Shown: positions 20,429 to 62,876 of the stretch, piece by piece
Layout of the letters: the number at the start of each line of letters is the position of its first letter
Position numbering within the stretch: the stretch's first letter is position 1
NCBI GenBank assembly: GCA_038916785.1
Contig: JBCLBO010000002.1
Coordinates: 21,085 to 85,084, forward strand
Source: Candidatus Hydrogenedentales bacterium
GTDB lineage: Bacteria > Hydrogenedentota > Hydrogenedentia > Hydrogenedentales > GCA-2746185
DNA length: 64,000 bases
Direction: 5' to 3'
The notes under the pieces: model-generated
What the model saw: only the letters and a program-made list of their open reading frames with translations
What the model was told of the DNA's origin: nothing
Database searches by the model: none
Position numbers and translations under genes: made by a program

Positions 20429-20542
20429 GCCACGGATTTAACGGATTACACGGATCAGGCTTCTTTTGATCTGTGAGTCGCCCGATGATCATCTCTTGAA
20501 AATGTTTGGAGATCGATCCGTTTTATCCATCAAATCCGTGGC
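20429..20542. repeat. Inverted pair of 28-nt triple-ATCCGT arms
   Basis: GCCACGGATTTAACGGATTACACGGATC (20429-20456) and GATCCGTTTTATCCATCAAATCCGTGGC (20515-20542) flank a 58-bp core. The pair lies between the convergent tyrS and anti-sigma genes. Confidence 0.8.
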
Positions 20543-20559
20543 TCATTCTCTCTGATATA

Positions 20560-22887
20560 TTAGCGTCCTTCAATCAGCGGCCGGGCCTGGAGCATCAGGT
20601 GGATCATTTCCGCGCGGCGGGGATCGTCGCTGGCGGCGAGGCCGGCCTGGGCGAGTTGCATCATGGTGTCGTAGCTCAGACCCGAGCCCAGTGGATTGCC
20701 GCGCAGTAGTTTGCCGAAGGCCGCGACGGCGCTGGCGAACTTGAGATCGGCCGAGGGCGATTCGGAAACCTGATCCTTCAGCGGGAACTCAAGCAGCTTG
20801 CTCTCCGCGCCTTCGGGTTCTTTGTAGCGCAGCTTCACGAGCATCAGTTCGTCGGCGTGCGCGGGCGATGCGGCTGGCGCGGCGGCCTGGGGAGCCGCTT
20901 CCGGGGCCGCGCCGCCGGTCTGATACCGCAGCGTGTCCTCCGTACCTGCGGGAATCGCCTGGTCGGCGGGGACGATTTCGTACAGCGCGGTGACGGTGTG
21001 ACCCGCGCCGATTTCGCCGGCGTCTTTGCGGTCGTCGTTGAAGTCCTGCGCGGCGAGTGCGCGGTTTTCGTAGCCGATGAGGCGGTAGGCCGCGACGCGG
21101 GCGGGGTTGAACTCGACCTGAATCTTCACGTCCTTCGCGATGGTCACGAGCGTGCCGGAGAATTCTTCGACGAAGACTTTGCGCGCTTCGGATTCGGAGT
21201 CGATGTACCCGTAGACGCCGTTGCCCTTGTCGGCGAGCATCTCCAGCTTGTCGTCCTTCAGGTTGCCCATGCCGAAACCGAACACGCTGAGGAACACGTT
21301 GCTTTTGGCTTCGTTCTGAATCATCGAGAGGAGCGAGTCGTTGTCGCTGATGCCTACGTTGAAGTCGCCGTCGGTCGCCAGGATGACTCGGTTCACGCCG
21401 CCCGGCAGAAAGTTCTCCCGCGCGGACTGATAGGCGAGCTGGATACCGCCGGCGCCATTCGTCGAGCCGCCCGCGCCGAGTTGATCGATCGCGCTAAGGA
21501 TCACGTCCTGCCGCGAGGCGTTGGTGACCGGCAAGGCAAGATTCACGCCGCTGGCATAGGTGACAATGCTGACCCGGTCGCGCTCGTCAAGCTGGCGCGT
21601 GAGCATCGCCATCGCGCGTTTGACCAGCGGCAGCTTGTTCTCCGGCTGCATCGAGCCGGACACGTCGATGAGGAAGACGAGGTTCGTCGCGGGGCGTTGC
21701 GCGCGCGGCACCTCGCGGCCCTTGAGCCCGATGCGCACGAGCGTGTGCGCCGGCGCCCAGGGGCACGCGGCCGCCTCGAAGTGCGCGGCGAAGGGCGTGC
21801 CGTCCGTCGGCGCGGGGTACGCGTAATCGAAGTAGTTGATCAGTTCCTCAACGCGCACGGCGTCCGGCGGCGGCAACTGGCCCGAGTCGAGGAAGCGCCG
21901 CACATTCGCGTAGGACGCCGTGTCGACGTCGATTGAGAAGGTCGAGAGCGGCTGGTCGCTGACGCGCAGGAAGCCGTTGTCGATGATTTGCTTGTAGGCT
22001 TCGGAGCCGGGGGATTCCGGCGCGACTTGGCGCGGATCCCGCCACGCGAGGTGGTCAATCCGTGCGACTTGGACCTCGTTTTGGCGGCCATAGCCGATCG
22101 ATTGCAGTTGAGCCTGATGTTCGCGGGAAAGGGTGCTGGAGTCCGGGGTCGCGACCGCCACAGGCGCGGCAGCCACAGCCGAAAGGAGTGCGGGACTATT
22201 TTGCGCCTTGTCGCCGAGAGCGGGTTTGGACTTCTTGCTGTCCGAGTAACCGATGCCTTCGAGTTCATCGACTTTCTCCGCGGGCATTGCCGCGGAACGC
22301 TCATACTCGACCCCTGCGCGGGCGTACGCGGTGCCCGCCGTTTCTTCATGCAGCTTGGGAATCTGCTCTTGAACTTCGGGCTTGTTGAAATCCGGGCGGA
22401 AGTTGGCGCTTGAGCCGGGTCCGTTGATATCTCCCATGAAGGCACGCTCGACGCCGGGCTTGAGTACCTTGAGGGTTTCCCACTCCCGTTGCGCCCTGGC
22501 TTCGGCAGTCTCAGCGTAGGATGGAAATAGGGCCAACTTCTCCCTCGGGGACTCGAAGCGGTCAACAATCTGATATACGGAGGCTATGAGCGCCAGCGCG
22601 GCGGCGAGCGCGATGGCTCGGCCCACGACTCGCCTGCGGGGCCGCGTAACCAGTGACTCAAGCTTGCTGCGCTGCTCGCCCGAGAGCGCAACACTTTCCG
22701 CGGAGTCTGCAAAGGCTTCTTCCGACAATTTCACCGCGGCACGGATTTCGTCGAGCGTCTTGCGCGGTGCTTCATTCCCCGCGTGCGCGGCATCGCCGAG
22801 CAGTTTTTCGATCGCCTTCGTTTCGGCGGGATCCAACTCGCCGAGCGCGTAGGCGGTCAATGTTTCGTCGTTGAGTTCGTGTTTCAT
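20560..22887 (-). CDS. Membrane anti-sigma factor fused to a von Willebrand factor A (YfbK-like) domain
   Basis: Start chosen at MKHELNDETLTAYALGELD (anti-sigma N-terminus), 4 nt after the sigma-gene stop. A single TM segment (AIALAAALALIASVY) is present. The vWA MIDAS motif is LVFLIDVSGSM, preceded by LSTFSIDVDTASYANVRRFL. Confidence 0.8.
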   Translation of the reverse strand: MKHELNDETLTAYALGELDPAETKAIEKLLGDAAHAGNEAPRKTLDEIRAAVKLSEEAFADSAESVALSGEQRSKLESLVTRPRRRVVGRAIALAAALALIASVYQIVDRFESPREKLALFPSYAETAEARAQREWETLKVLKPGVERAFMGDINGPGSSANFRPDFNKPEVQEQIPKLHEETAGTAYARAGVEYERSAAMPAEKVDELEGIGYSDSKKSKPALGDKAQNSPALLSAVAAAPVAVATPDSSTLSREHQAQLQSIGYGRQNEVQVARIDHLAWRDPRQVAPESPGSEAYKQIIDNGFLRVSDQPLSTFSIDVDTASYANVRRFLDSGQLPPPDAVRVEELINYFDYAYPAPTDGTPFAAHFEAAACPWAPAHTLVRIGLKGREVPRAQRPATNLVFLIDVSGSMQPENKLPLVKRAMAMLTRQLDERDRVSIVTYASGVNLALPVTNASRQDVILSAIDQLGAGGSTNGAGGIQLAYQSARENFLPGGVNRVILATDGDFNVGISDNDSLLSMIQNEAKSNVFLSVFGFGMGNLKDDKLEMLADKGNGVYGYIDSESEARKVFVEEFSGTLVTIAKDVKIQVEFNPARVAAYRLIGYENRALAAQDFNDDRKDAGEIGAGHTVTALYEIVPADQAIPAGTEDTLRYQTGGAAPEAAPQAAAPAASPAHADELMLVKLRYKEPEGAESKLLEFPLKDQVSESPSADLKFASAVAAFGKLLRGNPLGSGLSYDTMMQLAQAGLAASDDPRRAEMIHLMLQARPLIEGR

Positions 22888-22891
22888 GGCG

Positions 22892-23449
22892 TCAGGTCCT
22901 TTCATTCGTGGGCGGCCAGTCGAGCGTGCCGCGCAGGCGTGTGCGCACGGCGGTCAGCGCCTGCGCGATGGTGTAGTTCACGGTGGACAGCGGCATGTTC
23001 ATCACGCGGCTGATGTCGCGGTAGGTCAGCCCGTGCTCGAACTTGAGGCGGAAGGCCTCTTGTTGGTTGGCGGGCAGCGCGGCGACGGCCTCGAGCACGA
23101 GTGCGTGCTCCTCGCGCGCGATGGCGCGGCGGCCCGGCCCCGGCGCAGCGTCGGGCCGCGCCTCAGCCTCGGTTTGCCGTAGTGCTTGCATTCGGCCCTC
23201 CTTCTTCCGCACGTCGAGCGCGCGGTTCCGGCATACGGTGTACAACCAGGGGGCCAGCCGGCCGTTCAGCTTCGCCGGGTCTTCGCGGCAAAGCTTGACG
23301 AAGGTGTCTTGCACGACGTCTCGCGCGGACTCGAGTTCGCCCGTGAAGCGCGCGGCATACCGGATCAGCGGGCGCTCGTAGGTTTCGAGCGCCTGCCGCA
23401 CCCATTCCGCGCGCGCCGGGTTTCCGTCTGCCATCGTGTCGTCCGTCAC
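22892..23449 (-). CDS. ECF-type RNA polymerase sigma factor
   Basis: Sigma-70 region 2 (LIRYAARFTGELESARDVVQDTFVKL) and region 4 (LTYRDISRVMNMPLSTVNYTIAQAL). Confidence 0.85.
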   Translation of the reverse strand: MTDDTMADGNPARAEWVRQALETYERPLIRYAARFTGELESARDVVQDTFVKLCREDPAKLNGRLAPWLYTVCRNRALDVRKKEGRMQALRQTEAEARPDAAPGPGRRAIAREEHALVLEAVAALPANQQEAFRLKFEHGLTYRDISRVMNMPLSTVNYTIAQALTAVRTRLRGTLDWPPTNERT

Positions 23450-23523: not shown

Positions 23524-24888
23524 TCAGCGGTTTGCCGGGGCCGGGTCGAGGTGTGGTCTGAGCAGGGGCAGGAGCAGATCGGCGAAGAGGCGGTTGCCCT
23601 CTGGCGTGAGATGGCCGTCGTAATCGTAGAAGGCCTTCATAGCTTTGGAACCCGTACGGAACGCCGCCGTCACTTGCAGCATGGGGACACCCGCGCGATC
23701 ACTCGCACGCTGGTGGGCCTCGTCGGGCACCGTTGTGGCGAAATTGGCGTCCCGTATCCGGAGCTGTTGCTCGGTATTTATCGATTCAAAGAGTTTCTGC
23801 CAGCCGGAGATCCCGACATAGGAGCATTCGGGTATGGACACGGTCACCACGCGTGCCCCGTGGGCCTCGGCCACTTTCCGGATGTGTTCCAACTGCCGCG
23901 CGCACAATTCGATGCGGCGCCGCATGAGAACTGAGTCCACGTTCAGCTCCGGCGTGGTCTCCGGCGTGGGCGGGTCTTCGGCGACTACGGCTGCCCTGTC
24001 CGCCGGGGGCGGGGGCGTCGCCGTAGCGTGAGGCGCTTTCGGCGGACTCACCGGTCTCGGAAAAAGCCAAGTGAGTGAGGCGGGGTTTAGCTCACCCTCG
24101 ACGAAGGCGCGATGGATCGGCTCGGCCATTGCATGGAAGTTTTTCAGCCGGGTTTCATCCATGCTTGCAAGGTATTTCTGGGTTTTCTTCTTCCATTCGT
24201 CCTTAATCAAGGTCCGTTGGCCGACGAATTCCAGTCCGGGCCGGCGAGACAGCGAACGCAGTCCATCGGTTGAGAGTCGCGTGAGATTTGGAACCAAACG
24301 GTGCGCGAGGGATTTCGTGAATGCCGGTTTTTCGATCGGTACAGCGCGCGCGGGGGCGGGGTCGAGCCCAACTTCCTTAGGACGCCAATTTTTAACCTGC
24401 TCCAGATCGTTGCCTTGGAGCAGCCCCACCAAGACGAGGTCGGGCTTCAAGATGGGGATGACCTTCGCCGCCGTGTCCGCGTATTCGCCGGGTCCGTGCC
24501 CCGGAGAACCCAAGTTCAAGAGTTCGAGGTCGTGCCCTTCGGCGCGGAGCGCTTCTTCCAGCCGCTTGACCCAGGTGTCGGCCAGATCCACCCCCCAACC
24601 GTAGGTGTAGGAGTCGCCGAGCGCTAGAACGCGCAGTTTCCGGGTCTTCACACGTGTGGTGTCATCGCCCCGAAATCCGAGATTGTTCGCGTACACCGTA
24701 CACTTAAACTCGATCGTGTCGTAGTAGGCCGCGGAGTGCGGCGTGAACAAGAGGCCGGCCGGGAGCTCGTCCGCGGGACGAAAATGTCCGAGGGCGCGAT
24801 CGGCCACAAGCACAAGGGTGAATATGCCTGCGAGGGAACCGATCGCAAGCAGCACGTTGCCGATGAAGGTCTTCATCCGTGAAGTCAT
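23524..24888 (-). CDS. Membrane-anchored SGNH/GDSL-family hydrolase
   Basis: Start chosen at MTSRMKTFIGNVLLAIGSLAGIF (TM anchor). Block I is VLALGDSYTYGWG and block V is DGHLTPEG. Confidence 0.7.
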   Translation of the reverse strand: MTSRMKTFIGNVLLAIGSLAGIFTLVLVADRALGHFRPADELPAGLLFTPHSAAYYDTIEFKCTVYANNLGFRGDDTTRVKTRKLRVLALGDSYTYGWGVDLADTWVKRLEEALRAEGHDLELLNLGSPGHGPGEYADTAAKVIPILKPDLVLVGLLQGNDLEQVKNWRPKEVGLDPAPARAVPIEKPAFTKSLAHRLVPNLTRLSTDGLRSLSRRPGLEFVGQRTLIKDEWKKKTQKYLASMDETRLKNFHAMAEPIHRAFVEGELNPASLTWLFPRPVSPPKAPHATATPPPPADRAAVVAEDPPTPETTPELNVDSVLMRRRIELCARQLEHIRKVAEAHGARVVTVSIPECSYVGISGWQKLFESINTEQQLRIRDANFATTVPDEAHQRASDRAGVPMLQVTAAFRTGSKAMKAFYDYDGHLTPEGNRLFADLLLPLLRPHLDPAPANR

Positions 24889-25054
24889 CTGTCGTGGTCC
24901 GGTCTGTCCGTCTCGCCGAAGGTACTCACGGCGATCCCATAGGATGATAGGTGCGTGCGGCGACGCGGTCAACACGGCGCCGATCGCCGCGCGGCAACTT
25001 GCTTTCGGCGCGCGCGGACGGGAGAATACGCGCTTCTTGTCGAGGAGTGTCGTC

Positions 25055-25672
25055 GTGCCCGCCCAATCCGATTCACTGTCGTTCAAATGCCACCACTGCA
25101 ATCATTGCTGCATCGATGTGATTTGCCTGCCGAGTCCGTGGGACGTGCGGCGGATCATGCGGATGACGGGGCAGGACCCCTTCGATTTTTTGGAGTTCCT
25201 GACGCCGGAGGAGATCGAGGACGTCGATGATGACGACCCGACCTGGCTCGTGCTCAACGGCGTGAAGTACGTGATGGCGCTCAAGCGCGACGAGGTGCTC
25301 GGCTGCCATTTCCTGAACCGCGAGACGCGCCTGTGCTCGATCTACGAGGCGCGGCCCCTGCTCTGCCGCTTGTATCCCTTCAAGGTGGTGGAAGATGAGG
25401 ACGGCACGTATCGGGGATTCACACTGCACGAGGGCGTGGGCTGTCCGAAGCACGTCGATGGGGTCGTCCCGATGAAGCCCTTGCACGATCTGTATGTGCA
25501 GGACAGTATCAACGGCGAGGACTACGTCGAACTGGTCGATTTTTTCAACGCGCAGGACTATCCCGGCAAGGAAGTCGAGGATTTCGTCGTGATGTTTACC
25601 GGCGGATTCAGCAAGCTGCGCGAGAACCTCGACGAACAGGAACGCGAGAAGGCCGCCGGCGCGGTGAAGTGA
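25055..25672 (+). CDS. YkgJ-family cysteine-cluster protein
   Basis: A GTG start at 25055 lies 7 nt after GAGGAG. The CxxCxxCC signature is FKCHHCNHCC. Further Cys residues occur in CHFLN...RLCSIY...CRLYPF. Confidence 0.7.
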   Translation: MPAQSDSLSFKCHHCNHCCIDVICLPSPWDVRRIMRMTGQDPFDFLEFLTPEEIEDVDDDDPTWLVLNGVKYVMALKRDEVLGCHFLNRETRLCSIYEARPLLCRLYPFKVVEDEDGTYRGFTLHEGVGCPKHVDGVVPMKPLHDLYVQDSINGEDYVELVDFFNAQDYPGKEVEDFVVMFTGGFSKLRENLDEQEREKAAGAVK

Positions 25673-25682: not shown

Positions 25683-26012
25683 GCCACGGATTAGACGGAT
25701 TGAACGGATCAGTCTAATCCCGGGTTCGGGTTGCCGTGTCATTCCCTTGTAAAAAACGGCTCCAATTTTCGGCTACTTTATTTTAAGGGCGTCTAACAAA
25801 CCCCAGCGTTCGTAGCATGGGCGGCTCGCCCATGCGGGTGCATGCCAGCCGTGTCGGGTATTTTGTCAGATGCTCTAAGGAATGATTGATAAATCCGAAC
25901 AGCAATCGTGTCCCTGGGCTTGCGAATGTCGGGGTTTATCAGTGTCCATTGGTGGTCAAAAGCCCTGCATATTCGGGTGAAGTTAATCCGTTCAATCCGT
26001 CTAATCCGTGGC
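25683..26012. repeat. Inverted pair of 28-nt triple-ATCCGT arms enclosing a 274-bp core
   Basis: GCCACGGATTAGACGGATTGAACGGATC (25683-25710) matches the reverse complement of AATCCGTTCAATCCGTCTAATCCGTGGC (25985-12) at 27 of 28 positions; the second arm spans 25985-26012. The core carries a GTAGCATGGGCGG..CGCCCATGCGGG hairpin unit (25812-25838). The right arm overruns the menE stop. Confidence 0.85.
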
Positions 26013-27521
26013 TAATTCCTTTGCTCTTTTCTCGAAATCTCGCCGGGCCGGCTTGAGTCCCGGCTGGGCGAGATCGGCGGGCCAGGGGCGAATCGCGCGC
26101 GGGATTTTATGGCCGGGGAGCGTTACGCGCATATCTTTTTCTACCGCCGCCGCATCCAGCGCGCGGCCTTCTTCCATACGAACGAAGGCCACGGGCCGGC
26201 GGCCCCATTCCGCGTCGTCGACCGGCACGACGATCGCCTCTTCGACGCCTTCGATGTTGCGCAGCGCCTGCTCGATCTCTTCGGGCTGAATATTCTCGCC
26301 GCCGCTGATAAACATGTTGTCGCGCCGGCCGGTCACGTGGAGGTAGCCCGCGTCGTCGAAGCGGCCGAGGTCGCCCGTGCGGAACCAGCCCTCGTCCGTG
26401 AGCGGGCGATGCAGCGAGCCGTCCGGCTGGAGGTAGCCGAGAAAAAGTTGATCCCCGCGCACGAGAATCTCGCCCTCGGAGGAGATCGAGACCGTGCCGT
26501 CCACCAGCGGTTTTCCGGACGACAACAGCCGCTCCATCGCGTCGCCCGGCCGCGTGCAGCAGATCATCGCGGCGGTCTCCGTCATGCCGTAGCTCATCAC
26601 GAGTTTGATCCCGCGTGCCACAGCCTCGCGCACGAGCGGCTCCGGCGTGGGCCCGCCGCCCATCACGACGGCCTTGCACCGCGCGAGCGCGGCGGCGGAT
26701 GCGTCGTCGCGCAGGAGCCGGTAGAGTTGCGTGGCGACGAGCGAGACGTGGGTGGGGGCGTGGCGAATGAGCACGTCCCCCAATTCTTCGCCTTCCTCCG
26801 GCAAGACGATCGCCGCGCTGGCCAGCAGGCACCGGAACACGATGCTCAAGCCGCTGACGTGGTAGAGGGGAAGTGAGAGTAGCCAGCGGCTGCGCGCATC
26901 GAGTTCGAGAAGCCGATTTGCGGCTCTCGCACCCGAGAGCATGTTTCCCGCCGACAACACGGCGGCCTTCGGATCGCCGCTGCTTCCCGAGCTAAACACC
27001 ACGAGCGCAGGGATGTCGCGATGAAGCGTCAGGCTGGAAAGGGCCCGCTCATCTGAGCTCTCGTCGCGGTCCACGACCGGGAGCCGCGGGGGCGTGACTC
27101 GCGCGAGAGAGCCCTTGCCTCCGGTTTTCCGCTTGGCAGCCGTGCGGCGGGCCGCGTGCAGAAGCTGAAGCGCGTGAACAAAACGCGGCGTGGGCCACTC
27201 GGAGTTGACCATCCCCGCCGCGCCCCAGGAGGCCAGCGCCGAAAGCATGTGGAGAAGGGCGCACTCGTCGTCTTCGACAAAGACGACTTCGTATCGGCCC
27301 GGGCCGCAATTGGGGTCGAGGACGTCTTCGGTAAACCCGTCCACCCGGTCCCACATGTCGGCGTAATTTACGCGCTCGCTGGTATGGACGAGCGCGGGCC
27401 GGAGCGGTTCGTTTTCAATCTTGATTAGAGTCAATGAGCGTAGCTCCAGTTTGCACCGCGCTCCACTTCCGGTGTGATGAGATTGCCGCGTCGGGCGCTG
27501 AAGGGTGCGCCCTCTTCGCAA
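26001..27521 (-). CDS. menE: O-succinylbenzoate--CoA ligase (AMP-binding family)
   Basis: AMP-binding motif VFSSGSSGDPK, GWFRTGD, and men-operon context. The start is uncertain: TTG at 27521 or TTG at 27434. Confidence 0.75.
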   Translation of the reverse strand: MRRGRTLQRPTRQSHHTGSGARCKLELRSLTLIKIENEPLRPALVHTSERVNYADMWDRVDGFTEDVLDPNCGPGRYEVVFVEDDECALLHMLSALASWGAAGMVNSEWPTPRFVHALQLLHAARRTAAKRKTGGKGSLARVTPPRLPVVDRDESSDERALSSLTLHRDIPALVVFSSGSSGDPKAAVLSAGNMLSGARAANRLLELDARSRWLLSLPLYHVSGLSIVFRCLLASAAIVLPEEGEELGDVLIRHAPTHVSLVATQLYRLLRDDASAAALARCKAVVMGGGPTPEPLVREAVARGIKLVMSYGMTETAAMICCTRPGDAMERLLSSGKPLVDGTVSISSEGEILVRGDQLFLGYLQPDGSLHRPLTDEGWFRTGDLGRFDDAGYLHVTGRRDNMFISGGENIQPEEIEQALRNIEGVEEAIVVPVDDAEWGRRPVAFVRMEEGRALDAAAVEKDMRVTLPGHKIPRAIRPWPADLAQPGLKPARRDFEKRAKELATD

Positions 27522-27527: not shown

Positions 27528-28415
27528 TCAAAACATCCAACCGATCGAGAATAGCACGGTGTAGAGCACGAGCGCAGCGCCGGTGCGCGCGAGGACGGCG
27601 TTGAGTTCGCGCGGGTCGGTGTAGCGGAAGATGGCGAGGATGTTGGGAATCGCGAAGAGGAACGATGCGGCGGCGAGCAGGACCCACTGGTGATCCTTCG
27701 TTTGCGAGGCGAGGTAGGCCGGCACACCGATGGCCGCGGCGACCAGGCACAGGACGTACTCCGCGCGCGCGAAGTTCTTGCCGTAGCGCGCGGCTAGGGT
27801 GTGTTTTCCGGCGGCGCGATCGCCGTCGATGTCGCGCAGGTTGTTGACGGTGAGGATCGCGACCGAAAACAATCCCGGCGCGAAGGAGGCCGCGATCACC
27901 TGCGGCGGCACCTCGAAGGCCATAAGGTAGTAGCTGCCGCAGACGGCGACCGGGCCGAAGAACGCCAGCACAAAGGCCTCGCCCCAGCCGTGGTAGCCGA
28001 GCGGATAGGGCCCGCCGGTGTAGGCGAGCCCACTGGCGATCGAGGCGACGCCGATCAGCAGGTACAGCAGCCCGCCGCGCGACATGATGTAGAGCCCGGG
28101 AATGAAGACCGCGGCAAACGTGAGAATGATCGCGCCCTTCATCACCTGCGGCTTGATGAGGCTCGAGGCCACCGCGCGCGGCGGGCCCATGCGATTGGCG
28201 TCGGTGCCGCGCACGCCGTCGGAGTAGTCGTTGGCGAAGTTCGTCCCGATTTGGATAAGCAGCGCGCCGAGCAGACACGCGACGAATGAAGGCGCGTGAA
28301 AGAAGCCGGCTTCCGCTGCCATCGCCGCCGCGAGGATCACCGGGCATGCGCCTGCGGGGAGGGTTTTGGGCCGAAGGGCGAGCAGCCAGCGATTTTGGGA
28401 GGAGGGATTAGCCAC
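27528..28415 (-). CDS. menA: 1,4-dihydroxy-2-naphthoate polyprenyltransferase (UbiA family)
   Basis: Polytopic membrane protein with NDYSDGVRGTD (NxxxDxxxD). The GTG start lies inside a repeat arm, so the exact start is uncertain. Confidence 0.85.
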   Translation of the reverse strand: MANPSSQNRWLLALRPKTLPAGACPVILAAAMAAEAGFFHAPSFVACLLGALLIQIGTNFANDYSDGVRGTDANRMGPPRAVASSLIKPQVMKGAIILTFAAVFIPGLYIMSRGGLLYLLIGVASIASGLAYTGGPYPLGYHGWGEAFVLAFFGPVAVCGSYYLMAFEVPPQVIAASFAPGLFSVAILTVNNLRDIDGDRAAGKHTLAARYGKNFARAEYVLCLVAAAIGVPAYLASQTKDHQWVLLAAASFLFAIPNILAIFRYTDPRELNAVLARTGAALVLYTVLFSIGWMF

Positions 28416-28520
28416 GGATTAGACGGATAAGTCGGATCAATTACTGGTTGAGATCGAGCCTCTCGGAGTGTGGCGAAGGGCGAAAGATTTTAGCGACGGA
28501 TATATCGGATAGGGCGGATC
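28411..28520. repeat. Two direct triple-ATCCGT arms separated by a degenerate copy of the GxxExxY gene 3' end
   Basis: Arm GCCACGGATTAGACGGATAAGTCGGATC (28411-28438) and arm GCGACGGATATATCGGATAGGGCGGATC (28493-28520). The intervening roughly 55 nt align by eye, at about three-quarters identity, to 28515-28570. That region is the arm plus the last codons of the intact gene. Confidence 0.65.
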
Positions 28521-28522
28521 AG

Positions 28523-28912
28523 TCATGGGTTAAGGTAGAGCCTCTCGAAGTGGGGTGAAGGGCCGAAATTCATGAGTAGGGCAACGTGAATTCCTGTGGC
28601 TTTCAAGTAATTCCGGGTCTGCGAAAAATGTACCTTATCGAATTCCTTCACCGATTTTAGTTCAAGGATGACTTTGTCCTCGACCAAGATATCTGCTCGA
28701 AATTCGCCCACGATTTGGCCCTTAAACAATACCTTGATCGGTGCTTGTTGACTGACGTTCAGACCGGATTGCCTAAGTTCCAGCGCGAGTGCATTTTCGT
28801 ACACCGATTCCAAGAATCCATAGCCCAAGGCATTGTAAACGTCATAAAAGCACTTGATGATCCTGCCGGTCAGCTCTTCATGTTCTAACGCCGTGGACGT
28901 CTCATTCGCCAT
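28523..28912 (-). CDS. GxxExxY-family protein (PD-(D/E)XK-like)
   Basis: 129 aa with an exact GFLESVY (GxxExxY) motif and a downstream EFRADILVEDKVILELK core. It is clearly AT-richer than the flanking men genes. Confidence 0.8.
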   Translation of the reverse strand: MANETSTALEHEELTGRIIKCFYDVYNALGYGFLESVYENALALELRQSGLNVSQQAPIKVLFKGQIVGEFRADILVEDKVILELKSVKEFDKVHFSQTRNYLKATGIHVALLMNFGPSPHFERLYLNP

Positions 28913-28918: not shown

Positions 28919-28946
28919 GATCCGTTCTATCCGTCTAATCCGTCGC
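28919..28946. repeat. Triple-ATCCGT arm, inverted partner of 28493-28520
   Basis: GATCCGTTCTATCCGTCTAATCCGTCGC. It shares the variant ending CCGTCGC with the reverse complement of 28493-28520. Confidence 0.75.
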
Positions 28947-28951: not shown

Positions 28952-29776
28952 TTACGGTAGTTTAGGGAACTTCCCGAAGTTCGGCTTGCGCTTCTCGTTG
29001 TACGCGTTCCGGCCCTCTTGTCCCTCCTGGCTCATGTAGAACAGCCGCGTCGCGTGCCCCGCGAGCTGCTGCAAACCCGCGGCGCCGTCCTCGTCGGCGT
29101 TCATCGCGGCCTTGATGCACGCCAGCGCGATCGGCGAGTGGCCCAGCATCTCGCGACACCAGTGTACGGTCTCTTCTTCGAGCCGCGCGAGCGGCACGAC
29201 GGTGTTGATGAGGCCCATGTCGAGCGCCTGCTGCGCGTCGTATTGACGGCAGAGGAACCAAATTTCGCGCGCCTTCTTCTGGCCGACGATCCGCGCCAGG
29301 TGCGCCGAGCCATAGCCCGCGTCGAAGCTGCCCACGCGCGGGCCCGTCTGTCCGAAGCGCGCGTTGTCCGCCGCGATCGTGAGGTCGCACACCAGGTGCA
29401 ACACATGCCCGCCGCCGATCGCGTAGCCGGCGACCATCGCGACGACCGGTTTCGGACACGCCCGAATCTCGCGCTGGAAATCGAGCACGTTCAGCCGCGG
29501 CGGCGCGTCCCCGTGCAGGTAGCCCGCGTCGCCGCGGACGCCCTGGTCCCCGCCCGAGCAGAAGGCCTCCGGTCCTTCGCCGCACAGGATGACCACGCCG
29601 ATGGTGGTGTCCATCCGCGCCTCGTCGAGCGCGCCGCGCATCTCGTCCACCGTCAGCGGCGTGAACGCGTTGCGCCGATGCGGACGGTTAATCGTGATCT
29701 TCGCGATGCCTTCCGCCTTGTGGTAGTGGATATCCTTGTACTTCTGGCCGCAATCGGCCCATTGGATCGAGGACAT
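28952..29776 (-). CDS. menB: 1,4-dihydroxy-2-naphthoyl-CoA synthase
   Basis: Crotonase-fold MenB hallmarks: [50 protein letters not shown], and the C-terminal ...[11 protein letters not shown]. Confidence 0.95.
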
Positions 29777-31766: not shown

Positions 31767-32020
31767 GGCCCGATCATACACGTTCGTTCCTCCAACGGAT
31801 TTGAAACAGTATAGGTGGAGCCGCGTAGAAGTGCGATCCAAATGAAAACTGAAGGAAGTCGGGTGAACGTAGTAGCGTTTGTTAACAGTTTTGCTCGAAG
31901 CCCCCCGCACAAGCGTACGGATTGACATACAGGGCACAGTAATGTACAGTTAGATCGCGGTTGAGAGGGCCTCCTAACGGTTCGCTGGACGCAAGTCCAC
32001 TCGGCTGCATTGAATTCCCC

Positions 32021-32827
32021 ATGTACCTGCTCTATCTCGACGACGCAGGATCCGCCCCCAATCCCAACGAGGCATACTTCGTTTTGGGTGGCATCGCGGT
32101 TTATGAAACGCAAACCGATTGGTTTGCGCGCGAGATGGATCGACGTGCTTCAGACGTCAATAGCTCGAACCCCCAAAGCATCGAGTTCCACGCTTCCGAG
32201 ATTTACTCCGGGCGAGACGCGCCTTGGGACGCCATGTCGAAGGAAGATCGACGCGGTGTAATAAAATCCGTCCTCCGTGTAGTAAATGAATCTTACGAAA
32301 CCGCACGAACATTCGCTTGCGCTGTTCATAAGACATCGTACCCTGGACGAGATCCGGTCGAGATGGCTTTTGAAGACATTTGTAGTCGATTTGATCGTTT
32401 TCTGAGTCGTGTGCGAAACGAAGGCCACCGCGAACGCGGAATCATAATCTTTGACGAGAGCACGCACGAGACAGCGATTCAGCAAATGGCCAGAGACTTT
32501 CGTGCGCTGGGCACGCGATGGGGCAGCATTCGAAATCTCGCCGAAACACCGCTGTTCGTAGATTCTAGGGCGTCTCGCTTAGTGCAGGTCGCCGATCATA
32601 TCGCGTATGCGGTTTTTCGTCGATACAATGCCTCAGACACTCAGTATTTTGACATTTTCGCCCAACGTTTCGACGCGATGAACGGAGTTATACATGGTCT
32701 CGCGCACAAGCAGTTGGTCGATCCGAATTGCTTGTGCCCGGCGTGTTTGTCACGGCGGTTGGGACAGCCACGAGAGAACGACGATCAGCAATCTCTAAAC
32801 ATCCCCGACGGTCCCGCCGGCACATAG
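32021..32827 (+). CDS. DUF3800-family protein
   Basis: Start chosen at MYLLYLDDAGS (the YxDESG-like N-terminus of DUF3800). A C-terminal LVQVADHIAYAV motif is present. The gene is an AT-richer single-gene insert. Confidence 0.6.
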   Translation: MYLLYLDDAGSAPNPNEAYFVLGGIAVYETQTDWFAREMDRRASDVNSSNPQSIEFHASEIYSGRDAPWDAMSKEDRRGVIKSVLRVVNESYETARTFACAVHKTSYPGRDPVEMAFEDICSRFDRFLSRVRNEGHRERGIIIFDESTHETAIQQMARDFRALGTRWGSIRNLAETPLFVDSRASRLVQVADHIAYAVFRRYNASDTQYFDIFAQRFDAMNGVIHGLAHKQLVDPNCLCPACLSRRLGQPRENDDQQSLNIPDGPAGT

Positions 32828-48261: not shown

Positions 48262-49422
48262 ATGCGCGACGATTTTCATAACGAACTCGACCGGCTCGAC
48301 GCCGAGGGACTGCGGCGCCGGTTGCACGCCTTGCCCGAAGCGGGCGGACTGCTCGAGATCGACGGCCGGCCCGTGATCAATTTCTCGTCGAACGACTACC
48401 TGGATCTCGCGAACGACCCGCGTCTCAAGCGCGCGGGACAAGAGGCCATCGAGCGCTTCGGCTCCGGCGCGACGGCCTCGCGGCTGATGACCGGCCACCT
48501 GGACCTGCACGAGACGCTCGAGGCGCAACTCGCGGCGCTCACGCATCACGAGGCCGCGCTCGTGTTTCCCAGCGGATACCAGGCGAACGTAGGCGCGTTG
48601 CAGGCGCTCGCAGGCCCCGGCGACGCGATTTTTTCCGACGCGCTCAACCACGCGAGCCTGGTGGACGGCTGCCGCCTATCGCGCGCGCAGGTCCATATAT
48701 ATAGGCACGCGGATGTTGCCCACCTCGCAGCGCTGCTCCGCACCTGTGACACGCCGGGCCGCCGCATCGTGATCACGGACGCGGTCTTTAGCATGGACGG
48801 CGACCTCGCCCCGCTGCGCGAAGTAGCGGAGGCCGCGCATGCGCACGACGCGTTCCTCTATGTCGACGAAGCGCACGGCTTCGGCATCTACGGCGCAGGC
48901 GCGGGACTCAGCGCCGAATTCGGCGTGAAGCCAGACGCGATCTCGGCCAATCTCGCCAAGGCCCTCGGCGGCGGCGGCGGATTCGTCGCCGGTTCGGCGG
49001 AGTTCATCGATCTGCTCGTGAACCGCGCGCGCAGCTTTATCTTCTCCACTGGGCTCGCGCCGGCTTGCGTGGGCGCGGGGATCGAGGCCGCGCGCATCGT
49101 GATGACCGAGCCGGGCCTCGGCGCGGAATTGCTCGCGCGCGCCGCGTTCTTCCGCGCGGAGCTGCGGCGCGCGGGCGTCGACGTGCCCGATCACCGCTCC
49201 GCCATCATCCCGATCATCGTCGGGTCGAACGAAACGGCATTGGCACTCTCCGACGCACTCTTCGAGCGCGGCATCCTCGAGACCGCCATCCGTCCGCCTT
49301 CGGTCCCCTACGGCACCGCGCGCCTGCGCCTCTCGGTCACGCTCGCGCACACCCGCGACGACCTCGCGCGCGCGGCGCAGACCATCGCGGAGGTGCTGCA
49401 CGCCGCGAAGGTCAAGAACTGA
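48262..49422 (+). CDS. bioF: 8-amino-7-oxononanoate synthase
   Basis: Start chosen at [12 protein letters not shown] (the ORF opens at 48211). Motifs: [21 protein letters not shown], and the PLP-lysine region [11 protein letters not shown]. Confidence 0.9.
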
Positions 49423-49644: not shown

Positions 49645-49701
49645 TTCAATAGTCCCGATCCCAATTCATCCTCATTCACCTGTGGCTGATTGTTGCCCTC
49701 A

Positions 49702-50430
49702 ATGACTTCGCGCGGCTACTTCATCACCGGCACGGACACCGGCGTCGGCAAGACGGCGGTGACCGCCGCGATCCTGCGCCTGCTGCGCGCGCGGGGGGTG
49801 AACGCGGCGACGATGAAGCCGGTGCAAACCGGCGCGGTCCTGTGCGACGGCATGTGGATGGCGCCGGACCTCGCGCTGCACCACGCCGGCGCGGGGTTCC
49901 GGCCGCCGGTCGAGCATATCCGGCTCATGCAGCCGTATTGCTACGAGCCCGCGTGTTCGCCACATCTCGCCGGGCGCATGGCGGGACACTATCCCGAACT
50001 CGCGCAGATCGAGGCGAACGCGCGGCAACTTCTCCATCTATACGATATCCTGTTGCTCGAGGGCGCGGGCGGCATTTACGCGCCGCTCACGGAGACCGAA
50101 ACGACGCTCGATCTCATGCGGCGGCTGGCGATGCCGGTGATCCTCGTGGCTCGGCGCGGGCTGGGCACCATCAACCACACGCTGCTGTCGCTCGATGTCT
50201 TGCGGCGCGCGGGCTTGAGCGTGGCGGGCGTCATTTTCAATGAAACGGAGAACGTGCCCGTGGACTTCATCCGCGCGGACAACCCGCGCGCGATCGAGGC
50301 TTTCGGCAAGGTCCCGATATTGGGTAACATGGACCACTTGCCCGGATTCGACGCGGATCCGGGCAAGGCGTTGCGCGGTTCCGAACGATTTTTCCCGGGG
50401 CTCGCGACGATTTTTCCCGAACTGGGATGA
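49702..50430 (+). CDS. bioD: Dethiobiotin synthetase
   Basis: Start at MTSRGYFITGTDTGVGKT (P-loop). LLEGAGG follows. Confidence 0.9.
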   Translation: MTSRGYFITGTDTGVGKTAVTAAILRLLRARGVNAATMKPVQTGAVLCDGMWMAPDLALHHAGAGFRPPVEHIRLMQPYCYEPACSPHLAGRMAGHYPELAQIEANARQLLHLYDILLLEGAGGIYAPLTETETTLDLMRRLAMPVILVARRGLGTINHTLLSLDVLRRAGLSVAGVIFNETENVPVDFIRADNPRAIEAFGKVPILGNMDHLPGFDADPGKALRGSERFFPGLATIFPELG

Positions 50431-51755
50431 AGCCGATGGCGATTCACACGGACACGCTGCAAGACCTGGACTATCGCCACTTGTGGCATCCCTACACCGG
50501 CGCGAACGCCTACGAGGCGGCGCCGTGGACCTGTTTCGAGCGGGGCGAAGGCGTGTACTTGTACGACCGCGAGGGCCGCGCGGTGCTCGACGGCATTGCG
50601 TCCTGGTGGGCGGTCGCGCTGGGGCACAGTCATCCCCGGATCGTCGCCGCGATCCGCGCGCAGGCGGGCGTGCTGCAGCACGCGATCCTCGGCAATCAGA
50701 CGCATCCGCTCGCGGTGAAACTCGCCGCGCGCCTCGCGCAGATGACCCCGGCGGGCCTGACGCGCTGCTATTTCGCCTCCGATGGCGCAAGCGCGACCGA
50801 AGCCGCGCTGAAAATCGCGATCCAGTATTGGCACAACAAAGGCGTGCGCGGGAAAACCCGCTTCGTCGCGCTCGACGAGGGCTACCACGGCGACACGCTC
50901 GGCGCGGTCGGCGTCGGCTTCGTGCCGAGCTTTCATGCGCCCTTCGACGGTGCGGTCGTGAAGTCCTTCGTCGCGCCCACGCCGCACCGCGCGGGCAATC
51001 CCGACGATGGCGCGGACCGCGCGCACGCGCTCGAAGCCTTCGCGGCGATGGAGCGGATCGTCGACGAGCACGAATCGGCGATTGCGGGAATCATCCTCGA
51101 ACCGCTCTGCCAGGGCGCGGCGGGCATCCGCATCTATCACCCCGAATACCTGCGCCGCGTGCGCGCACTGTGCGACGCGCGCGGGCTGCTGCTGATTGCC
51201 GACGAGATCGCGGTCGGCTTCGGCCGCACGGGCGGCGTGTTTGCCTGCGACGTCGCCGGCATCGCGCCCGATATCCTGTGCATGGGCAAGGCGCTGACGG
51301 GCGGCACGCTGCCGATGAGCGCCGCGATCGTCACCGACGCGATCTACGACACCTTCCGCAGCGAGCCTGGCCGCGACCGCACCTTCTACGACGGCCACAC
51401 CTTCTGCGGCAACCCGATCACGAGCGCGGCCGCGCTCGCCTTCCTCGACGCCTTCGAGCAGGAGCGCGTGATGGACAAGGTCGCCGCGCGCGCGCCGCAG
51501 CTGGCTGAGGGCATGGCCCGCCTCGCGCGAAATTCTGCCGTGCACTTTCATAAATCGCTCGGGATGATCGGCATGGTCGCGCTCACGGCGGAGTCCGGCG
51601 GCCCCGCGCTCGCCCAGCAGATCGCGCGACGCGCGCTCGATGGCGGCCTTTTCATCCGCCCGCTGGGAAGTGTGCTGTACCTCTGGCCGCCGCTGAGCAC
51701 CACCGAATCCGAACTGGATCGAATGCTCGAACTATTCGCGCGCGCAATGCCGTAG
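50427..51755 (+). CDS. bioA: Adenosylmethionine-8-amino-7-oxononanoate aminotransferase
   Basis: LWHPYT, the DEIAVGFGRTG motif, and the PLP lysine in CMGKALTGG. It overlaps the bioD stop (ATGA). Confidence 0.95.
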   Translation: MKPMAIHTDTLQDLDYRHLWHPYTGANAYEAAPWTCFERGEGVYLYDREGRAVLDGIASWWAVALGHSHPRIVAAIRAQAGVLQHAILGNQTHPLAVKLAARLAQMTPAGLTRCYFASDGASATEAALKIAIQYWHNKGVRGKTRFVALDEGYHGDTLGAVGVGFVPSFHAPFDGAVVKSFVAPTPHRAGNPDDGADRAHALEAFAAMERIVDEHESAIAGIILEPLCQGAAGIRIYHPEYLRRVRALCDARGLLLIADEIAVGFGRTGGVFACDVAGIAPDILCMGKALTGGTLPMSAAIVTDAIYDTFRSEPGRDRTFYDGHTFCGNPITSAAALAFLDAFEQERVMDKVAARAPQLAEGMARLARNSAVHFHKSLGMIGMVALTAESGGPALAQQIARRALDGGLFIRPLGSVLYLWPPLSTTESELDRMLELFARAMP

Positions 51756-52528
51756 GGGCGACCCTCCCAACCGCGCGCCCGCAGATGACACCGATAGACA
51801 CAGCGGACCCCTGTCGACTCTGGTCGCGGCGGGCGTCCTCGCCCGCGTGTGTTTGAGGTGAAGTCGCGCCCGGTGGTCTCTCCAGGTTCCCTCTATATGT
51901 ATGCGCGTCTTGTTGCACTCGGGGAAAGTGCGGGTGCGAAACAAGGGGCGGTCGAACACTACTCTCGAGATTTCAGAGTTGAGATTTCGGAACTCTTAGT
52001 CGGGACGGGGCTTGGCGGTTCAGCATGTAGCGCGACGGCGAAGCGGCGGGACGCCGCTTCCACTATAGCTGCAGTTGCTAAACAAGGGAGAAGGATGTTT
52101 TATTGTTTTTAGCAGCGATAAATTCCATAAGACCTAGATCCCTTTGCTTCCCGGTCCATGCTGACGGGTGAGTCCGCGTGCTATCGAGGGCAACGCACGT
52201 GGCCGCGATTTCCTCATCCCCTAGAGCATTTTAACAAATCTATCGATACGATCGGGACCAGACTCCTTTCATTTTTATTGCGGTTATCGGTGTCCATCTG
52301 TATCTATCGGTGGATAATTTGCTCTAGCCTCCTTTTCCGGAGACCCGAGACTGCCAAATCTCTACCCTTACCAATGGGCTCCTTCACGGGGGAGGCATCG
52401 ATCGGACTCCACGTTACTAGAGATGACTCGTGTCGATGGTGCCCTCCACCGCTATGAATGAAACGGGGCCTCGTGAATGTTCACGATCGATTTGTTGCGA
52501 CGTGCGGAAGTCTTCGGCGGGGACGAGA

Positions 52529-62133: not shown

Positions 62134-62603
62134 CCAATGGGGTCGTCATTCGGGTCCTAAAATAGGATCGGCAGAGCCGGTGAAAAAGCCGATCTCGTTT
62201 GTCTGTTGTAGTCGCGGCGATAATGGTGGATTCAAAGTCTACGTGCAACAACTCCGTGATTAGAAGCGGTACTTCGCGGCCTATCCAAGCCGAAGGCTTG
62301 ACAGAAAGTAGCCAGTGGTCGCCGCAGCGCGGCGACCACCGGGTAGCGAAAAAAGCCGAAGCACCCTGGAGGGGGGGGTGCCAGAAGCCTTATGCATTTT
62401 CTGCGACCCCTCCAGGGTCGGTAGCACTGGCCAGGTATCCGGGGGTGTCGCTGCGCTCAACCCCCGGCTACTCTCTGGCAACTCTTCGAGTTGCACACCA
62501 CTCGAATCCGCCGTGTTCTATGCCTCGCGATCCGCTTAAAGGGCCAAACCCCAGGCAACTCGTCGAGTTGCGCCGGCGTGGCTACAGTTTTTCGACAAAT
62601 GCT

Positions 62604-62796
62604 CTAAATAGCCGGTGGTATACCTGGATCACTTCACTGTGCAGAAATAGATCGCGCTGGGCCCGTTGCGGCCAGATCAGGGTATGTCTTTCGGCGGACC
62701 GGCGGGGAGATTCTTCGCTACCGCTCAGAATGACAAAAGTGAAGGTTCCGGCGTGGAGAACACACCAGTGTCTCAGATTGATCACCGGCTATTTAG
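62604..62796 (-). mobile_element. 193-bp MITE-like element, copy 2 (inverted relative to copy 1)
   Basis: Same TIRs (62604-17 and 62783-96). Reading both sequences, I see no mismatch to the reverse complement of 47999-48191. TA is present at both junctions. Confidence 0.8.
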
Positions 62797-62848
62797 CGGC
62801 GGATAGCGCGCCGCCCAATGGACCACACGAACGTCAACCGGCAAAACC

Positions 62849-62876
62849 GATCCGTCCAATCCGTTAAATCCGTGGC
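62849..62876. repeat. Solitary triple-ATCCGT arm
   Basis: GATCCGTCCAATCCGTTAAATCCGTGGC, 52 nt from MITE copy 2. It is followed by a GAGACTGCTTCGTCGCGATCGCGCTTCTCGGAATGAC unit (62895-62931). Confidence 0.75.

Follow-up and report, generated by a model that had tools for sequence, protein, structure and literature searches.

We investigated a family of 28-nt repeats, here termed arms, in a 64,000-nt stretch of DNA (the window) from a Candidatus Hydrogenedentales bacterium (contig JBCLBO010000002.1, positions 21,085 to 85,084), which lie at the ends of protein-coding genes and, between menB and menA in the men operon, bracket a small gene of the GxxExxY family in what is probably a compact arm-gene-arm cassette. 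Read on its own strand, each arm has the form GCC (or GCG)-ACGGAT-nnn-ACGGAT-nnn-ACGGAT-C. The initial annotation of the window had described nine copies built from three tandem 9-nt units, and this description was accurate: a search for ATCCGTN3ATCCGTN3ATCCGT with up to 2 mismatches returned exactly the same nine sites, compared to 0.00 expected from 100 shuffles, and all nine are arrays of three ACGGATnnn units (ATCCGT on the other strand). Five of the nine differ at 3 or fewer positions from the 28-nt consensus given in that annotation. An nhmmer profile of the nine arms recovered all of them with E values of 4e-09 to 3e-06 and nothing else in the window above E ~4; because neither search yielded a further copy, the window count is exactly nine.

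Six of the arms form three inverted pairs, with cores of the sizes given previously. Pair 1 consists of the arm at 20429..20456 (+; GCCACGGATTTAACGGATTACACGGATC), which is in sense orientation and starts 9 nt past the stop codon of tyrS (19145..20419, +), and the arm at 20515..20542 (-; GCCACGGATTTGATGGATAAAACGGATC), likewise sense, 17 nt past the stop codon of a VWA/YfbK-type gene (20560..22905, -), with a core of 58 nt (20457-20514) between them. Pair 2 has a 274-nt core (25711-25984) and comprises the sense arm at 25683..25710 (+; GCCACGGATTAGACGGATTGAACGGATC), 10 nt past the stop codon of a CxxCxxCC/YkgJ-type gene (24743..25672, +), and the arm at 25985..26012 (-; GCCACGGATTAGACGGATTGAACGGATT), which is sense to menE (26001..27521, -), encodes the last codons of that gene (A-T-D and stop), and is the reverse complement of its partner at 27 of 28 positions. 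In pair 3, the arm at 28919..28946 (-; GCGACGGATTAGACGGATAGAACGGATC) starts 5 nt past the stop codon of menB (28952..29776, -) and ends 6 nt before the ATG of the GxxExxY gene (28523..28912, -; 129 aa), which fills the core (28521-28918); the arm at 28493..28520 (GCGACGGATATATCGGATAGGGCGGATC on the + strand) starts 2 nt past the GxxExxY stop codon and is inverted relative to the 5' arm. Beyond this proximal 3' arm lie a 54-nt vestige of an older GxxExxY gene, derived from its 3' end (28439..28492, -) and belonging to an 82-nt tandem duplication (28408-28568; 82-nt period, 78% match), and a distal, older 3' arm (28411..28438; GCCACGGATTAGACGGATAAGTCGGATC on the + strand). The other two arms are solo: one at 42673..42700 (-; GCCACGGATTTGACGGATTGAGCGGATC) is sense, 10 nt past the stop codon of a DinB_2-family gene (42711..43367, -), and has no inverted partner, and one at 62849..62876 (-; GCCACGGATTTAACGGATTGGACGGATC) adjoins an open reading frame (ORF; 62864..63847, -) that has no family match and may be spurious. 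The window thus contains one full cassette (28493-28946), an older-cassette stump (28411-28492), and six gene-less ACGGAT-type arms that are either solo or paired across convergent gene ends.

The enclosed gene product matches PF13366 (E 6.7e-40, 136.5 bits; cut-off 22) and TIGR04256 (E 9e-40, 135.7 bits; cut-off 35), which identifies it as a member of the GxxExxY family, for which no function has been assigned (PMC3424549). An AlphaFold2 model based on an alignment of 59 homologues has a pLDDT of 93.9, and its best structural matches in Foldseek are Cas4 SSO0001, lambda exonuclease, archaeal Hjc resolvases, and tRNA-splicing endonucleases. Because Cas4, lambda exonuclease, and Hjc lead these matches, we take GxxExxY to be a minimal PD-(D/E)XK nuclease. 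Six residues are invariant among the 59 homologues (E35, D74, E84, K86, Q98, and Y102), and in the window protein the catalytic D...E-x-K residues (D74, E84, and K86), together with E35, are intact; judging from the model, the fold, and these residues, the nuclease looks active. The 58 aligned homologues, to which the window protein is 53-77% identical, include named proteins from Bacteroidota, Acidobacteriota, Anaerolineales, and a Methanobacteriota metagenome-assembled genome (MAG). PADLOC, PHROGs, and sequence searches of PDB chains gave no match to the GxxExxY protein, and an exact look-up found the window protein not to be on record. The gene has a GC content of 47.5%, compared to 66-67% in the adjoining menA and menB. 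The statement in the initial annotation that the window contains no transposase holds insofar as no transposase family was found among the window ORFs scanned, but it passed over the gene inside pair 3, which may encode the cognate enzyme of the arms or, failing that, is the cargo characteristic of them. Queried by tblastn with 35 family members, the other cores gave nothing significant and no sign of a degraded GxxExxY gene.

The position of the arms relative to genes is constrained. Seven of the nine start no more than 13 nt before or 17 nt after the end of a stop codon and run in the sense direction of the gene concerned (tyrS, the VWA/YfbK-type gene, the CxxCxxCC/YkgJ-type gene, menE, menB, the DinB_2 gene, and the unsupported ORF 62864..63847); the two others, at 28411 and 28493, are the inverted partners downstream of the enclosed gene and not sense arms. 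The primary unit is a single, strand-specific arm located just 3' of a gene, not the inverted pair. Pairs 1 and 2 represent two independent sense arms each because two arm-bearing genes converge there, and this independence is confirmed by two related contigs (L206 and L207; contigs and loci are cited here by L numbers), in which tyrS is followed by menB in tandem and the tyrS arm is present yet solo, without a convergent gene. Thus, the inverted pairs at gene ends that had been proposed are real in their coordinates and cores, but the pair is not the basic unit. Pfam also supports convergence of tyrS with the VWA/YfbK-type gene and of the YkgJ-type gene with menE. The label "anti-sigma" for the VWA/YfbK-type gene was a guess; this gene lies downstream of an extracytoplasmic function (ECF) sigma factor gene.

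Two coding termini that had been reported to consist of arm sequence indeed do so. MenE ends ...K-E-L-A-T-D-stop inside arm 25985-26012, and the GTG start codon of menA (27528..28415, -), at 28413-28415, is the sole in-frame start upstream of the conserved MenA N-terminus and belongs to the outer end, ...ATCCGTGGC, of arm 28411..28438 on the - strand. Otherwise, all nine arms are intergenic or touch ORF ends only. Stop codons occur in one arm frame only, and the arm frame varies relative to the upstream gene; a coding or read-through peptide, or a tandem tripeptide repeat, was rejected on these two grounds.

Across 80 metagenomic loci encoding GxxExxY relatives, most of the GxxExxY genes are bracketed by inverted arms of the same kind of unit. 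In this protein-first sample, scored with a strict arm detector, 67 genes had enough flanking sequence; a sense arm lies 5' of the gene in 48 (72%), an inverted arm lies 3' in 50 (75%), and both are present in 42 (63%), with oppositely oriented arms in only 11 and 9 cases, respectively. Arm density within 200 nt of GxxExxY is 3.13/kb compared to 0.081/kb elsewhere on the same contigs, a 39-fold difference. The core generalizes to RCNGAT (ACGGAT, ACAGAT, GCAGAT, GCGGAT, ACTGAT, and others; RCNGAG in Bacteroides finegoldii), and an arm is an array of three to five such units. The distinctive 9-nt period noted in the initial annotation did not generalize, however, because the core-to-core spacing depends on the copy, with 9 nt in 60 cases, 10 nt in 77, and essentially no other value. 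At 42 of 45 genes, the two arms agree in period (22.9 expected), and at 23 of 45 they agree in flavor (8.5 expected). Gaps between sense and inverted arms are bimodal, either 0-100 nt (76 pairs) or ~350-550 nt (44 pairs), and the insert in the gene-containing pairs is GxxExxY almost without exception.

Both cassettes and arms directly follow the 3' end of a host ORF, in its sense orientation, and 39 of 43 GxxExxY genes are co-oriented with their upstream neighbor. The start of the nuclease gene lies at or within the final unit of the 5' arm, which in most cases leaves no space for a separate promoter; in about a third of cases (17/48), the first ATG is inside the arm, such that N-termini such as MNAD and MNTD are encoded by the repeat. 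Examples include a Bacteroidota MAG with arms flanking the nuclease gene in lutA|GxxExxY|lutB, an Anaerolineales contig and a Methanobacteriota MAG with arms on both sides of the gene, radA|GxxExxY with RCNGAG-core arms in B. finegoldii, a Fusobacteria plasmid on which arms flank GxxExxY, and L159, which carries two GxxExxY cassettes in tandem. The association also appears from the opposite direction: in a scan of mechanically called ORFs up to 1.5 kb from an arm, covering the window and 120 loci selected by motif, the sole recurrent small family is GxxExxY, no transposase or recombinase recurs, and no gene family besides GxxExxY recurs directly downstream of sense arms.

Orthologous loci were reached through MenA homologues. 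The amino acid identity of MenA to that of the window is 96% for L201 and for L333/L334, 82% for L202, 81% for L204, and 76% for L206/L207, whereas L335 has menB without an adjacent menA; the nearest named MenA relatives, with 53-69% identity, are from Hydrogenedentota MAGs. The initial annotation had suggested comparing relatives for presence or absence of the element, and the comparison revealed such a polymorphism. GxxExxY occupies the 3' end of menB in the window, L201, L333, L204, and L335, and the same site in L202 and L206/L207 holds an empty hairpin of another flavor (CACCGAT or ACAGAT units at 10-nt spacing), with a further arm nested in the loop in L206.

The gene-less arms are widely retained at orthologous sites. 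The tyrS arm is present in L201, L204, and L206/L207, the YkgJ-type-gene arm in L201, L204, L206, and L207, and the VWA arm in L201 and L206, with an ACGAAG-type mini-hairpin in its place in L204; menE also ends inside an arm in L204 and L206/L207 (...LATD-stop, ...LAADLTD-stop). The sequence between arms is not alignable, and its length varies (274, 385, ~100, and ~140 nt). By hand count, core positions of orthologous arms are identical at 137 of 144 positions (95%) and spacers at 26 of 48 (54%). The menB|menA and VWA 3' sites always carry some arm or hairpin, even though the flavor changes (ACGGAT, CACCGAT, ACAGAT, or ACGAAG).

The cassette, by comparison, turns over. Among the window, L201, and L333, the proportion of synonymous differences (pS) is 0.07-0.15 for menA and 0.07-0.18 for menB, whereas that of GxxExxY is 0.012 between the window and L201, with 1 synonymous difference against ~10 expected (Poisson P ~7e-4), and 0.88 (saturated; 77% amino acid identity) between either of these and L333. 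The 5' arm spacers change in step with the GxxExxY allele. L333 has a single cassette, the 3' arm of which equals the distal arm of L201, so that the window and L201 carry a newer arm-gene-arm unit followed by the 54-nt stump of an older gene and the old arm. In the window and its relatives, the GC content of the cassette is 46-48% compared to 66-67% for menA and menB. Because the pS values of GxxExxY depart from those of the host genes in both directions and the spacers move along with the gene, the arm-gene-arm unit has its own history. It evolves separately from the host genes on either side and has been replaced at a fixed site, by recent spread or a sweep of the unit into the window and L201 and by replacement relative to L333.

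Arms can fold into hairpins. Pair 1 (20420-20550) folds with a z-score of -4.1 on the + strand and -6.8 on the - strand; like the empty hairpins of L202 and L206, it greatly exceeds shuffled controls in folding stability (z -4 to -7). For the men-operon transcript, structure prediction places the 5' arm opposite the distal arm (28411..28438), in a stem that would loop out the nuclease gene and sequester the menA start codon. The spacer positions of the two arms are not complementary in pairs 1 and 3. Among 91 arm pairs, complementarity at spacer positions is 52% in empty and 73% in gene-containing pairs, whereas core positions, and likewise the three outer bases, are 93% complementary; thus, given the poor match of the spacers, what is conserved is the periodic core rather than a perfect stem. 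Pairs with a gene look younger than those without, in a comparison that is biased because detection needs intact cores. ARAGORN found no tRNA, and Rfam gave no match at the gathering threshold for the arms of the window and 18 loci, nor any with E <=5 in 20300-29100. T-arm, tRNA-like, and DnaA-box resemblances were rejected, as no supporting structure or match was found; the TwoAYGGAY motif, considered since ACGGAT fits AYGGAY, did not match; and CsrA-type GGA sites, Shine-Dalgarno-like sequences, and Hfq ARN motifs were rejected by reasoning, as arms also occur in Bacteroidota, Cyanobacteria, and archaea and the ACAGAT and ACTGAT flavors lack GGA.

The arm family is not restricted to its source genome. 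Three ACGGAT at 9-nt spacing occur at a minimum of 120 loci in species-representative genomes, and the matches listed include Verrucomicrobiota, Planctomycetota, Acidobacteriota, Cyanobacteria, Bacteroidota, Chloroflexota, Leptospirales, Firmicutes, KSB1, and Poribacteria, along with archaeal MAGs (Methanoperedens and Methanosarcinales). Most of the listed matches have the fuller unit CACGGATnn and an outer leader such as TTTAACC, TTAGCC, or ATAGAAC, and an inverted partner is often present 30-100 nt away; a few are unrelated coding tandem repeats (e.g., L002, L004, L032, and L041). Outside the window genome, arms mostly lack a gene. Among the matches listed, the ACGGAT motif is equally frequent in IMG/VR viral contigs. 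GxxExxY is absent from cultured phage genomes and was found in only 8 of 72,556 plasmids. In the literature searched, with subscription journals and database family descriptions outside the search, there was no description of these arms.

Taken together, these observations make it probable that the 28-nt arms are the terminal repeats of widespread small arm-gene-arm cassettes, the sole gene of which is a GxxExxY PD-(D/E)XK nuclease. The unit behaves like a new kind of small mobile element, the mobilization mechanism of which we infer from sequence features. Transcription that reads through from the host gene would express GxxExxY, and in the resulting RNA the two arms may pair and loop out the gene, much like rRNA intervening sequences. 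The nuclease could recognize or cut the arm array, or the hairpin or cruciform formed by it, and the break could then be repaired from a gene-carrying copy with the arms serving as homology, in a homing-like process; alternatively, the unit might move in a transposition-like manner. Arm-only hairpins and solo arms would be empty targets or decayed derivatives, comparable to hairpin-forming doublets of repetitive extragenic palindromic sequences (REPINs), singlets of such sequences (REPs), or miniature inverted-repeat transposable elements (MITEs). A more ambitious version, which we regard as possible but doubtful, is that GxxExxY proteins are the enzymes of unrecognized, domain-crossing selfish elements, ~0.45-kb units that parasitize gene 3' ends, are expressed by read-through, home or transpose into RCNGAT arrays, and leave arm-only copies that hosts or phages perhaps co-opted as gene-boundary signals.

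Several observations weigh against the cassette interpretation. Cleavage or binding of the arms by GxxExxY is something we infer purely from sequence, and the protein, at ~125 aa, is small for reading a 6-nt core. The arm-only copies share the arms alone, with unrelated cores of 58-470 nt, unlike copy-and-paste products. Down to 76% MenA identity, solo arms persist at the ends of tyrS, menE, the VWA gene, and the YkgJ-type gene, a pattern more suggestive of purifying selection at the host level, or of concerted evolution, than of junk. Ordinary homologous recombination through the host genes on either side, with an old polymorphism as its substrate, could also account for allele replacement at menB|menA, and no direct repeat indicative of target-site duplication was found outside the arms in the window, L204, or L333, where all compared sites are armed. 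GxxExxY identity tracks arm flavor weakly (58.8% for the same and 55.8% for different flavors). In 1.07 Mb of viral contigs, there is no GxxExxY gene, and the arms are mostly solo, with a partner for 12 of 134; where an ORF stop codon is nearby, 18 of 65 viral arms lie 2-4 nt past it. Arms also occur among other small genes. In L031 (2800-6100), they are interspersed with two RhuM genes, Abi_2, and DUF1016/YhcG; in L052 (300-2500; an Anammoxibacter MAG), they punctuate VapBC and HicAB; in the viral contig L240 (7351-8367 and 11502-11742), CACGAAT-flavor arms bracket a radical-SAM-like gene and ACGGAT arms a 69-aa ORF; and in L158 (2877-3476), they bracket a 148-aa ORF.

Some of these points are what would be expected under the main rival explanation, which we consider unlikely overall, namely, that the arms are cis-acting host or phage punctuation: three or more protein-binding sites on RNA or duplex DNA just past stop codons, with GxxExxY as the acting factor or a mere settler. 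The roles of such punctuation would be, with similarly low probability, RNA processing or stability, a polar roadblock or termination, or insulation between cistrons. This explanation accommodates the strand-specific, sense placement of the arms within ~17 nt of stop codons, including the solo tyrS arm in L206/L207 that faces no convergent gene; the identity of orthologous cores compared with spacers, with unalignable sequence between the arms; the constant occupancy of the menB|menA and VWA 3' sites through changes of flavor; and the arm arrays among other small genes. It also fits the poor complementarity of paired-arm spacers (52%), such that the core motif is the conserved feature, and the viral arms, which lack GxxExxY and cluster just past stop codons, with starts of the next ORF clustering weakly 10-13 nt downstream of them. 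However, on GxxExxY-bearing metagenomic contigs the arms are nearly confined to the flanks of that gene, and the low GC content and allele turnover of the cassette point to a selfish unit. The arms lie inside operons (menB|menA, bioF|bioD, and lutA|lutB) and therefore cannot be strong terminators; they match no Rfam family; and we know of no binding protein common to organisms from Bacteroidota through archaea. The selfish-element and boundary-signal views are compatible if selfish arms were later co-opted.

It is distinctly less likely that the arms act as attC/attI-like sites at which cassettes attach or recombine through an enzyme encoded elsewhere, with GxxExxY as the commonest cargo. Co-oriented arm arrays do separate defense and toxin-antitoxin-type genes in L031 and L052, arms in L240 bracket genes other than GxxExxY, two cassettes are in tandem in L159, and in the window and L201 the newest cassette adjoins the host gene with the older stump distal to it, as in integron arrays. 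Nevertheless, no integrase or recombinase recurs in the 1.5-kb neighborhoods of the window arms and of the 120 motif-selected loci, the arms lack the attC R'/R'' motifs, and no family but GxxExxY recurs directly downstream of sense arms. Moreover, the arms of a cassette are inverted, and a conservative site-specific recombinase would therefore invert the cassette instead of excising it.

Mobilization of the arms as REPs or bacterial interspersed mosaic elements (BIMEs) by a REP-associated tyrosine transposase (RAYT, TnpA-REP) or an IS200/IS605-type transposase encoded elsewhere in the genome is very improbable. Extragenic location, large numbers, stable folding, and frequent inverted doublets where genes converge would all be in keeping with such elements, but a single arm is a direct array of three units with neither a palindrome nor a GTAG or CGTC tag. 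Among the ORFs up to 1.5 kb from an arm, in the window or at the 120 motif-selected loci, no RAYT, IS200/IS605-type, or other Y1/HUH transposase gene was seen, and the gene that the arms do flank encodes the PD-(D/E)XK protein GxxExxY. Furthermore, a distinct GTAG-tagged palindrome coexists with the arms in the window (25811-25836 and 42640-42664). Finally, although a minority of database matches are coding tandem repeats, there is a negligible chance that the arms are compositional artefacts or tandem tripeptide-coding repeats, which is refuted for the window copies by the zero matches in shuffles, the location of the arms between genes or at ORF ends, and their varying frame.

The window contains other repeats, some of them of similar design. 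A related arm of the 10-nt flavor at 51781..51810 (+; CGCAGATGA CACCGATAGA CACAGC...) lies ~25 nt past the stop codon of a class-III aminotransferase gene (bioA-like, 50427..51755, +), with an inverted partner at 52283..52316 (-; ...ATCGGTGTCCATCTGTATCTATCGGTGG) and a core of ~470 nt without a detectable GxxExxY remnant. Another 9-nt periodic arm with the core ATGGGA forms an inverted pair at 10870-10913 and 11064-11091 (TATGGGAAG x5 / TCCCATnnn x3); the copy at 10870 starts 4 nt past the stop codon of a phosphodiesterase gene (9172..10866, +), an architecture like that of the ACGGAT arms, and the ACGGAT and ATGGGA readings occur in one array in L117. A third 9-nt flavor, CACGAAGGA x3, is present at 49425-49457 with an inverted partner at 49618-49644, between a bioF-like (48211..49422, +) and a bioD-like (49690..50430, +) gene, with another copy at 11100-11135, after an AMP-binding gene (11147..12781, -). 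ACGGAT and ACGAAG units are mixed in one array in L113, and tandem arms of mixed flavor in L052 have CACGGAT x4 followed by CACTAAT x3. The bioF|bioD junction with the ACGAAG hairpin in the window corresponds to a cassette site in Bacteroidota-like contigs (L140, L155, and L178, probably also L132, L153, and L200), where the cassette lies between a gene ending ...LLSTFVF-stop and a BioD-like gene (MKLFITGIGTDVGKT...); in orthologous arms at this junction, the N of ACNGAT varies and AC.GAT is kept.

The GTAG-tagged palindrome mentioned above (CGTAGCATGGGCGGCYCGCCCATGC), one copy of which is in the pair-2 core and the other beside the solo arm at 42673, belongs to a canonical-looking REP family distinct from the arms. 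An interspersed repeat at 62701-62739 (...GAGATTCTTCGCTnCGCTCAGAATGAC...) occurs together with ...GATTGCTTCGTCGC...CTCGCAATGACG palindromes; related palindromes are found at ~49497-49610 and 62885-62930 in the window and in L201 (11560-11640), L204 (15640-15690), and L206 (11290-11330), and one copy of this type of repeat is inserted in the pair-2 core of L201, not in that of the window. Matches to the Acido-Lenti-1 RNA at 42420-42465 (+) and 42274-42319 (-) score 44.1 and 39.7 bits (gathering threshold 37) and form an inverted pair just upstream of, or overlapping, the start of dapB (41404..42312, -), with another copy in L054. A DUF3800 gene (31961..32827, +) carries a DUF3800-VI RNA motif at its 5' end (31958-32007; 51.7 bits); the syntenic contig L204 also has a DUF3800 gene, at another position. 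The men-locus neighborhood shows another small-cassette polymorphism: HicB/HicAB genes are present between Lactamase_B and rplL in L201 (894..1253) and L204 (2867..3496) and absent in L202. In L085 (6421..7158) and L053 (3495..4340), ORFs with a weak PF05635 match (E 5e-06, below the cut-off) and a Zn-ribbon end right at CGGACGGAT-type arms, which hints that the four-helix-bundle PF05635 family may use similar arms.

The sequence comparisons show a periodic arm class that crosses phyla, its specific link with GxxExxY, its sense position at gene 3' ends, the occurrence of empty and occupied states, and turnover decoupled from the host. GxxExxY/PDDEXK_3 is a very large family, with >5,000 clusters matched in one search, that occurs in many bacterial phyla and archaea and has almost no literature, and tying it to a defined DNA or RNA element provides a concrete, testable hypothesis for its function. 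If GxxExxY mobilizes the arms, it would represent a new class of enzyme for REPIN/MITE-type elements and, with two ~30-nt arms and a single ~125-aa nuclease, a minimal self-contained mobile unit. Such units would account for many of the hairpins between genes, and many of the spurious small ORFs, in Bacteroidota, the PVC group (Planctomycetes and Verrucomicrobia), Acidobacteriota, Cyanobacteria, and others, and a nuclease that reads a periodic array could have potential as a tool. Should the arms instead be host signals, a boundary motif common to Bacteroidota, archaeal MAGs, and phages would still be unexpected.

The classification of the arms as REP/BIME- or MITE-like in the initial annotation captured their character as interspersed, extragenic repeats at gene ends that occur as solo arms, hairpin doublets, and gene-carrying copies, but they are neither REP/BIME sequences nor classical MITEs; membership in these two classes, and among integron cassettes, was rejected because defining features fail. 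By definition (PMC3733652), a REP is an imperfect palindrome, 20-40 nt long, that is tagged at one end with GTAG or CGTC, whereas an arm has neither internal dyad symmetry nor a tag. The extragenic position with inverted doublets and singlets is shared. Compared with REPIN/RAYT systems, the cassettes likewise comprise short repeats at gene ends, found as singlets and hairpin-forming inverted doublets, and an enzyme gene flanked by inverted repeats, with long persistence at orthologous sites. They differ in that a ~125-aa PD-(D/E)XK nuclease takes the place of the Y1 HUH transposase, the arm consists of directly repeated 9-10-nt units instead of a GTAG-tagged palindrome, the enzyme gene occurs in multiple copies and is horizontally exchanged (GC 47% compared to 66%), and the arm family spans phyla, archaeal MAGs, and viral contigs, whereas REPINs are lineage-specific.

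MITEs such as the Correia/NEMIS elements of Neisseria also have terminal inverted repeats and an intergenic or intra-operon location. The arms of Correia elements form long RNA stems that are substrates of RNase III, and the arms described here can form long RNA stems that would be such substrates as well. As with MITEs, gene-less copies outnumber gene-carrying ones in the window (13 gene-less arms, counting the 10-nt pair, compared to one gene). Unlike MITEs, however, the copies share only the arms, around unrelated cores of 58, 274, and ~470 nt, the sole remnant being the stump at 28439-28492; no target-site duplication was seen at the armed sites compared; the full-length partner lacks a known transposase; and many copies are solo arms in a fixed orientation to the upstream gene. 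Integron cassettes resemble the units described here in being small, promoterless, and dependent on upstream transcription, in forming arrays with the newest cassette proximal, and in their typical cargo (toxin-antitoxin and defense-type genes, as in L031 and L052), but here no IntI is found near the arms, attC R''/R' (GTTRRRY) cores are absent, the flanking sites are inverted, and the arm core is conserved.

Intervening sequences of 23S rRNA (S23p, PF05635), which have a similar phyletic range, likewise feature inverted repeats that bracket a small ORF in the host transcript, comparable to the predicted loop-out in the men operon, and a PF05635-like ORF adjoins arms in L085. The arms described here, however, are in 3' or intercistronic regions of mRNA and not in rRNA, the ORF family is different, and, to our knowledge, no intervening sequence with arms of this periodic design has been reported. 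Homing endonuclease genes, in particular the PD-(D/E)XK types I-Ssp6803I and I-Bth0305I, differ from the GxxExxY cassettes in that the target here is a repeat array at gene 3' ends and not an intron or intein site in a conserved gene, in that these sites are multi-copy per genome, and in that cleavage of the empty site is putative. What they have in common is a small nuclease gene in the middle of a symmetric site that is also found empty, at the same orthologous position too, a two-state distribution of sites, allele turnover at a fixed locus, reflected in GxxExxY pS values either well below or far above those of the host genes, low GC content, and cross-phylum spread.

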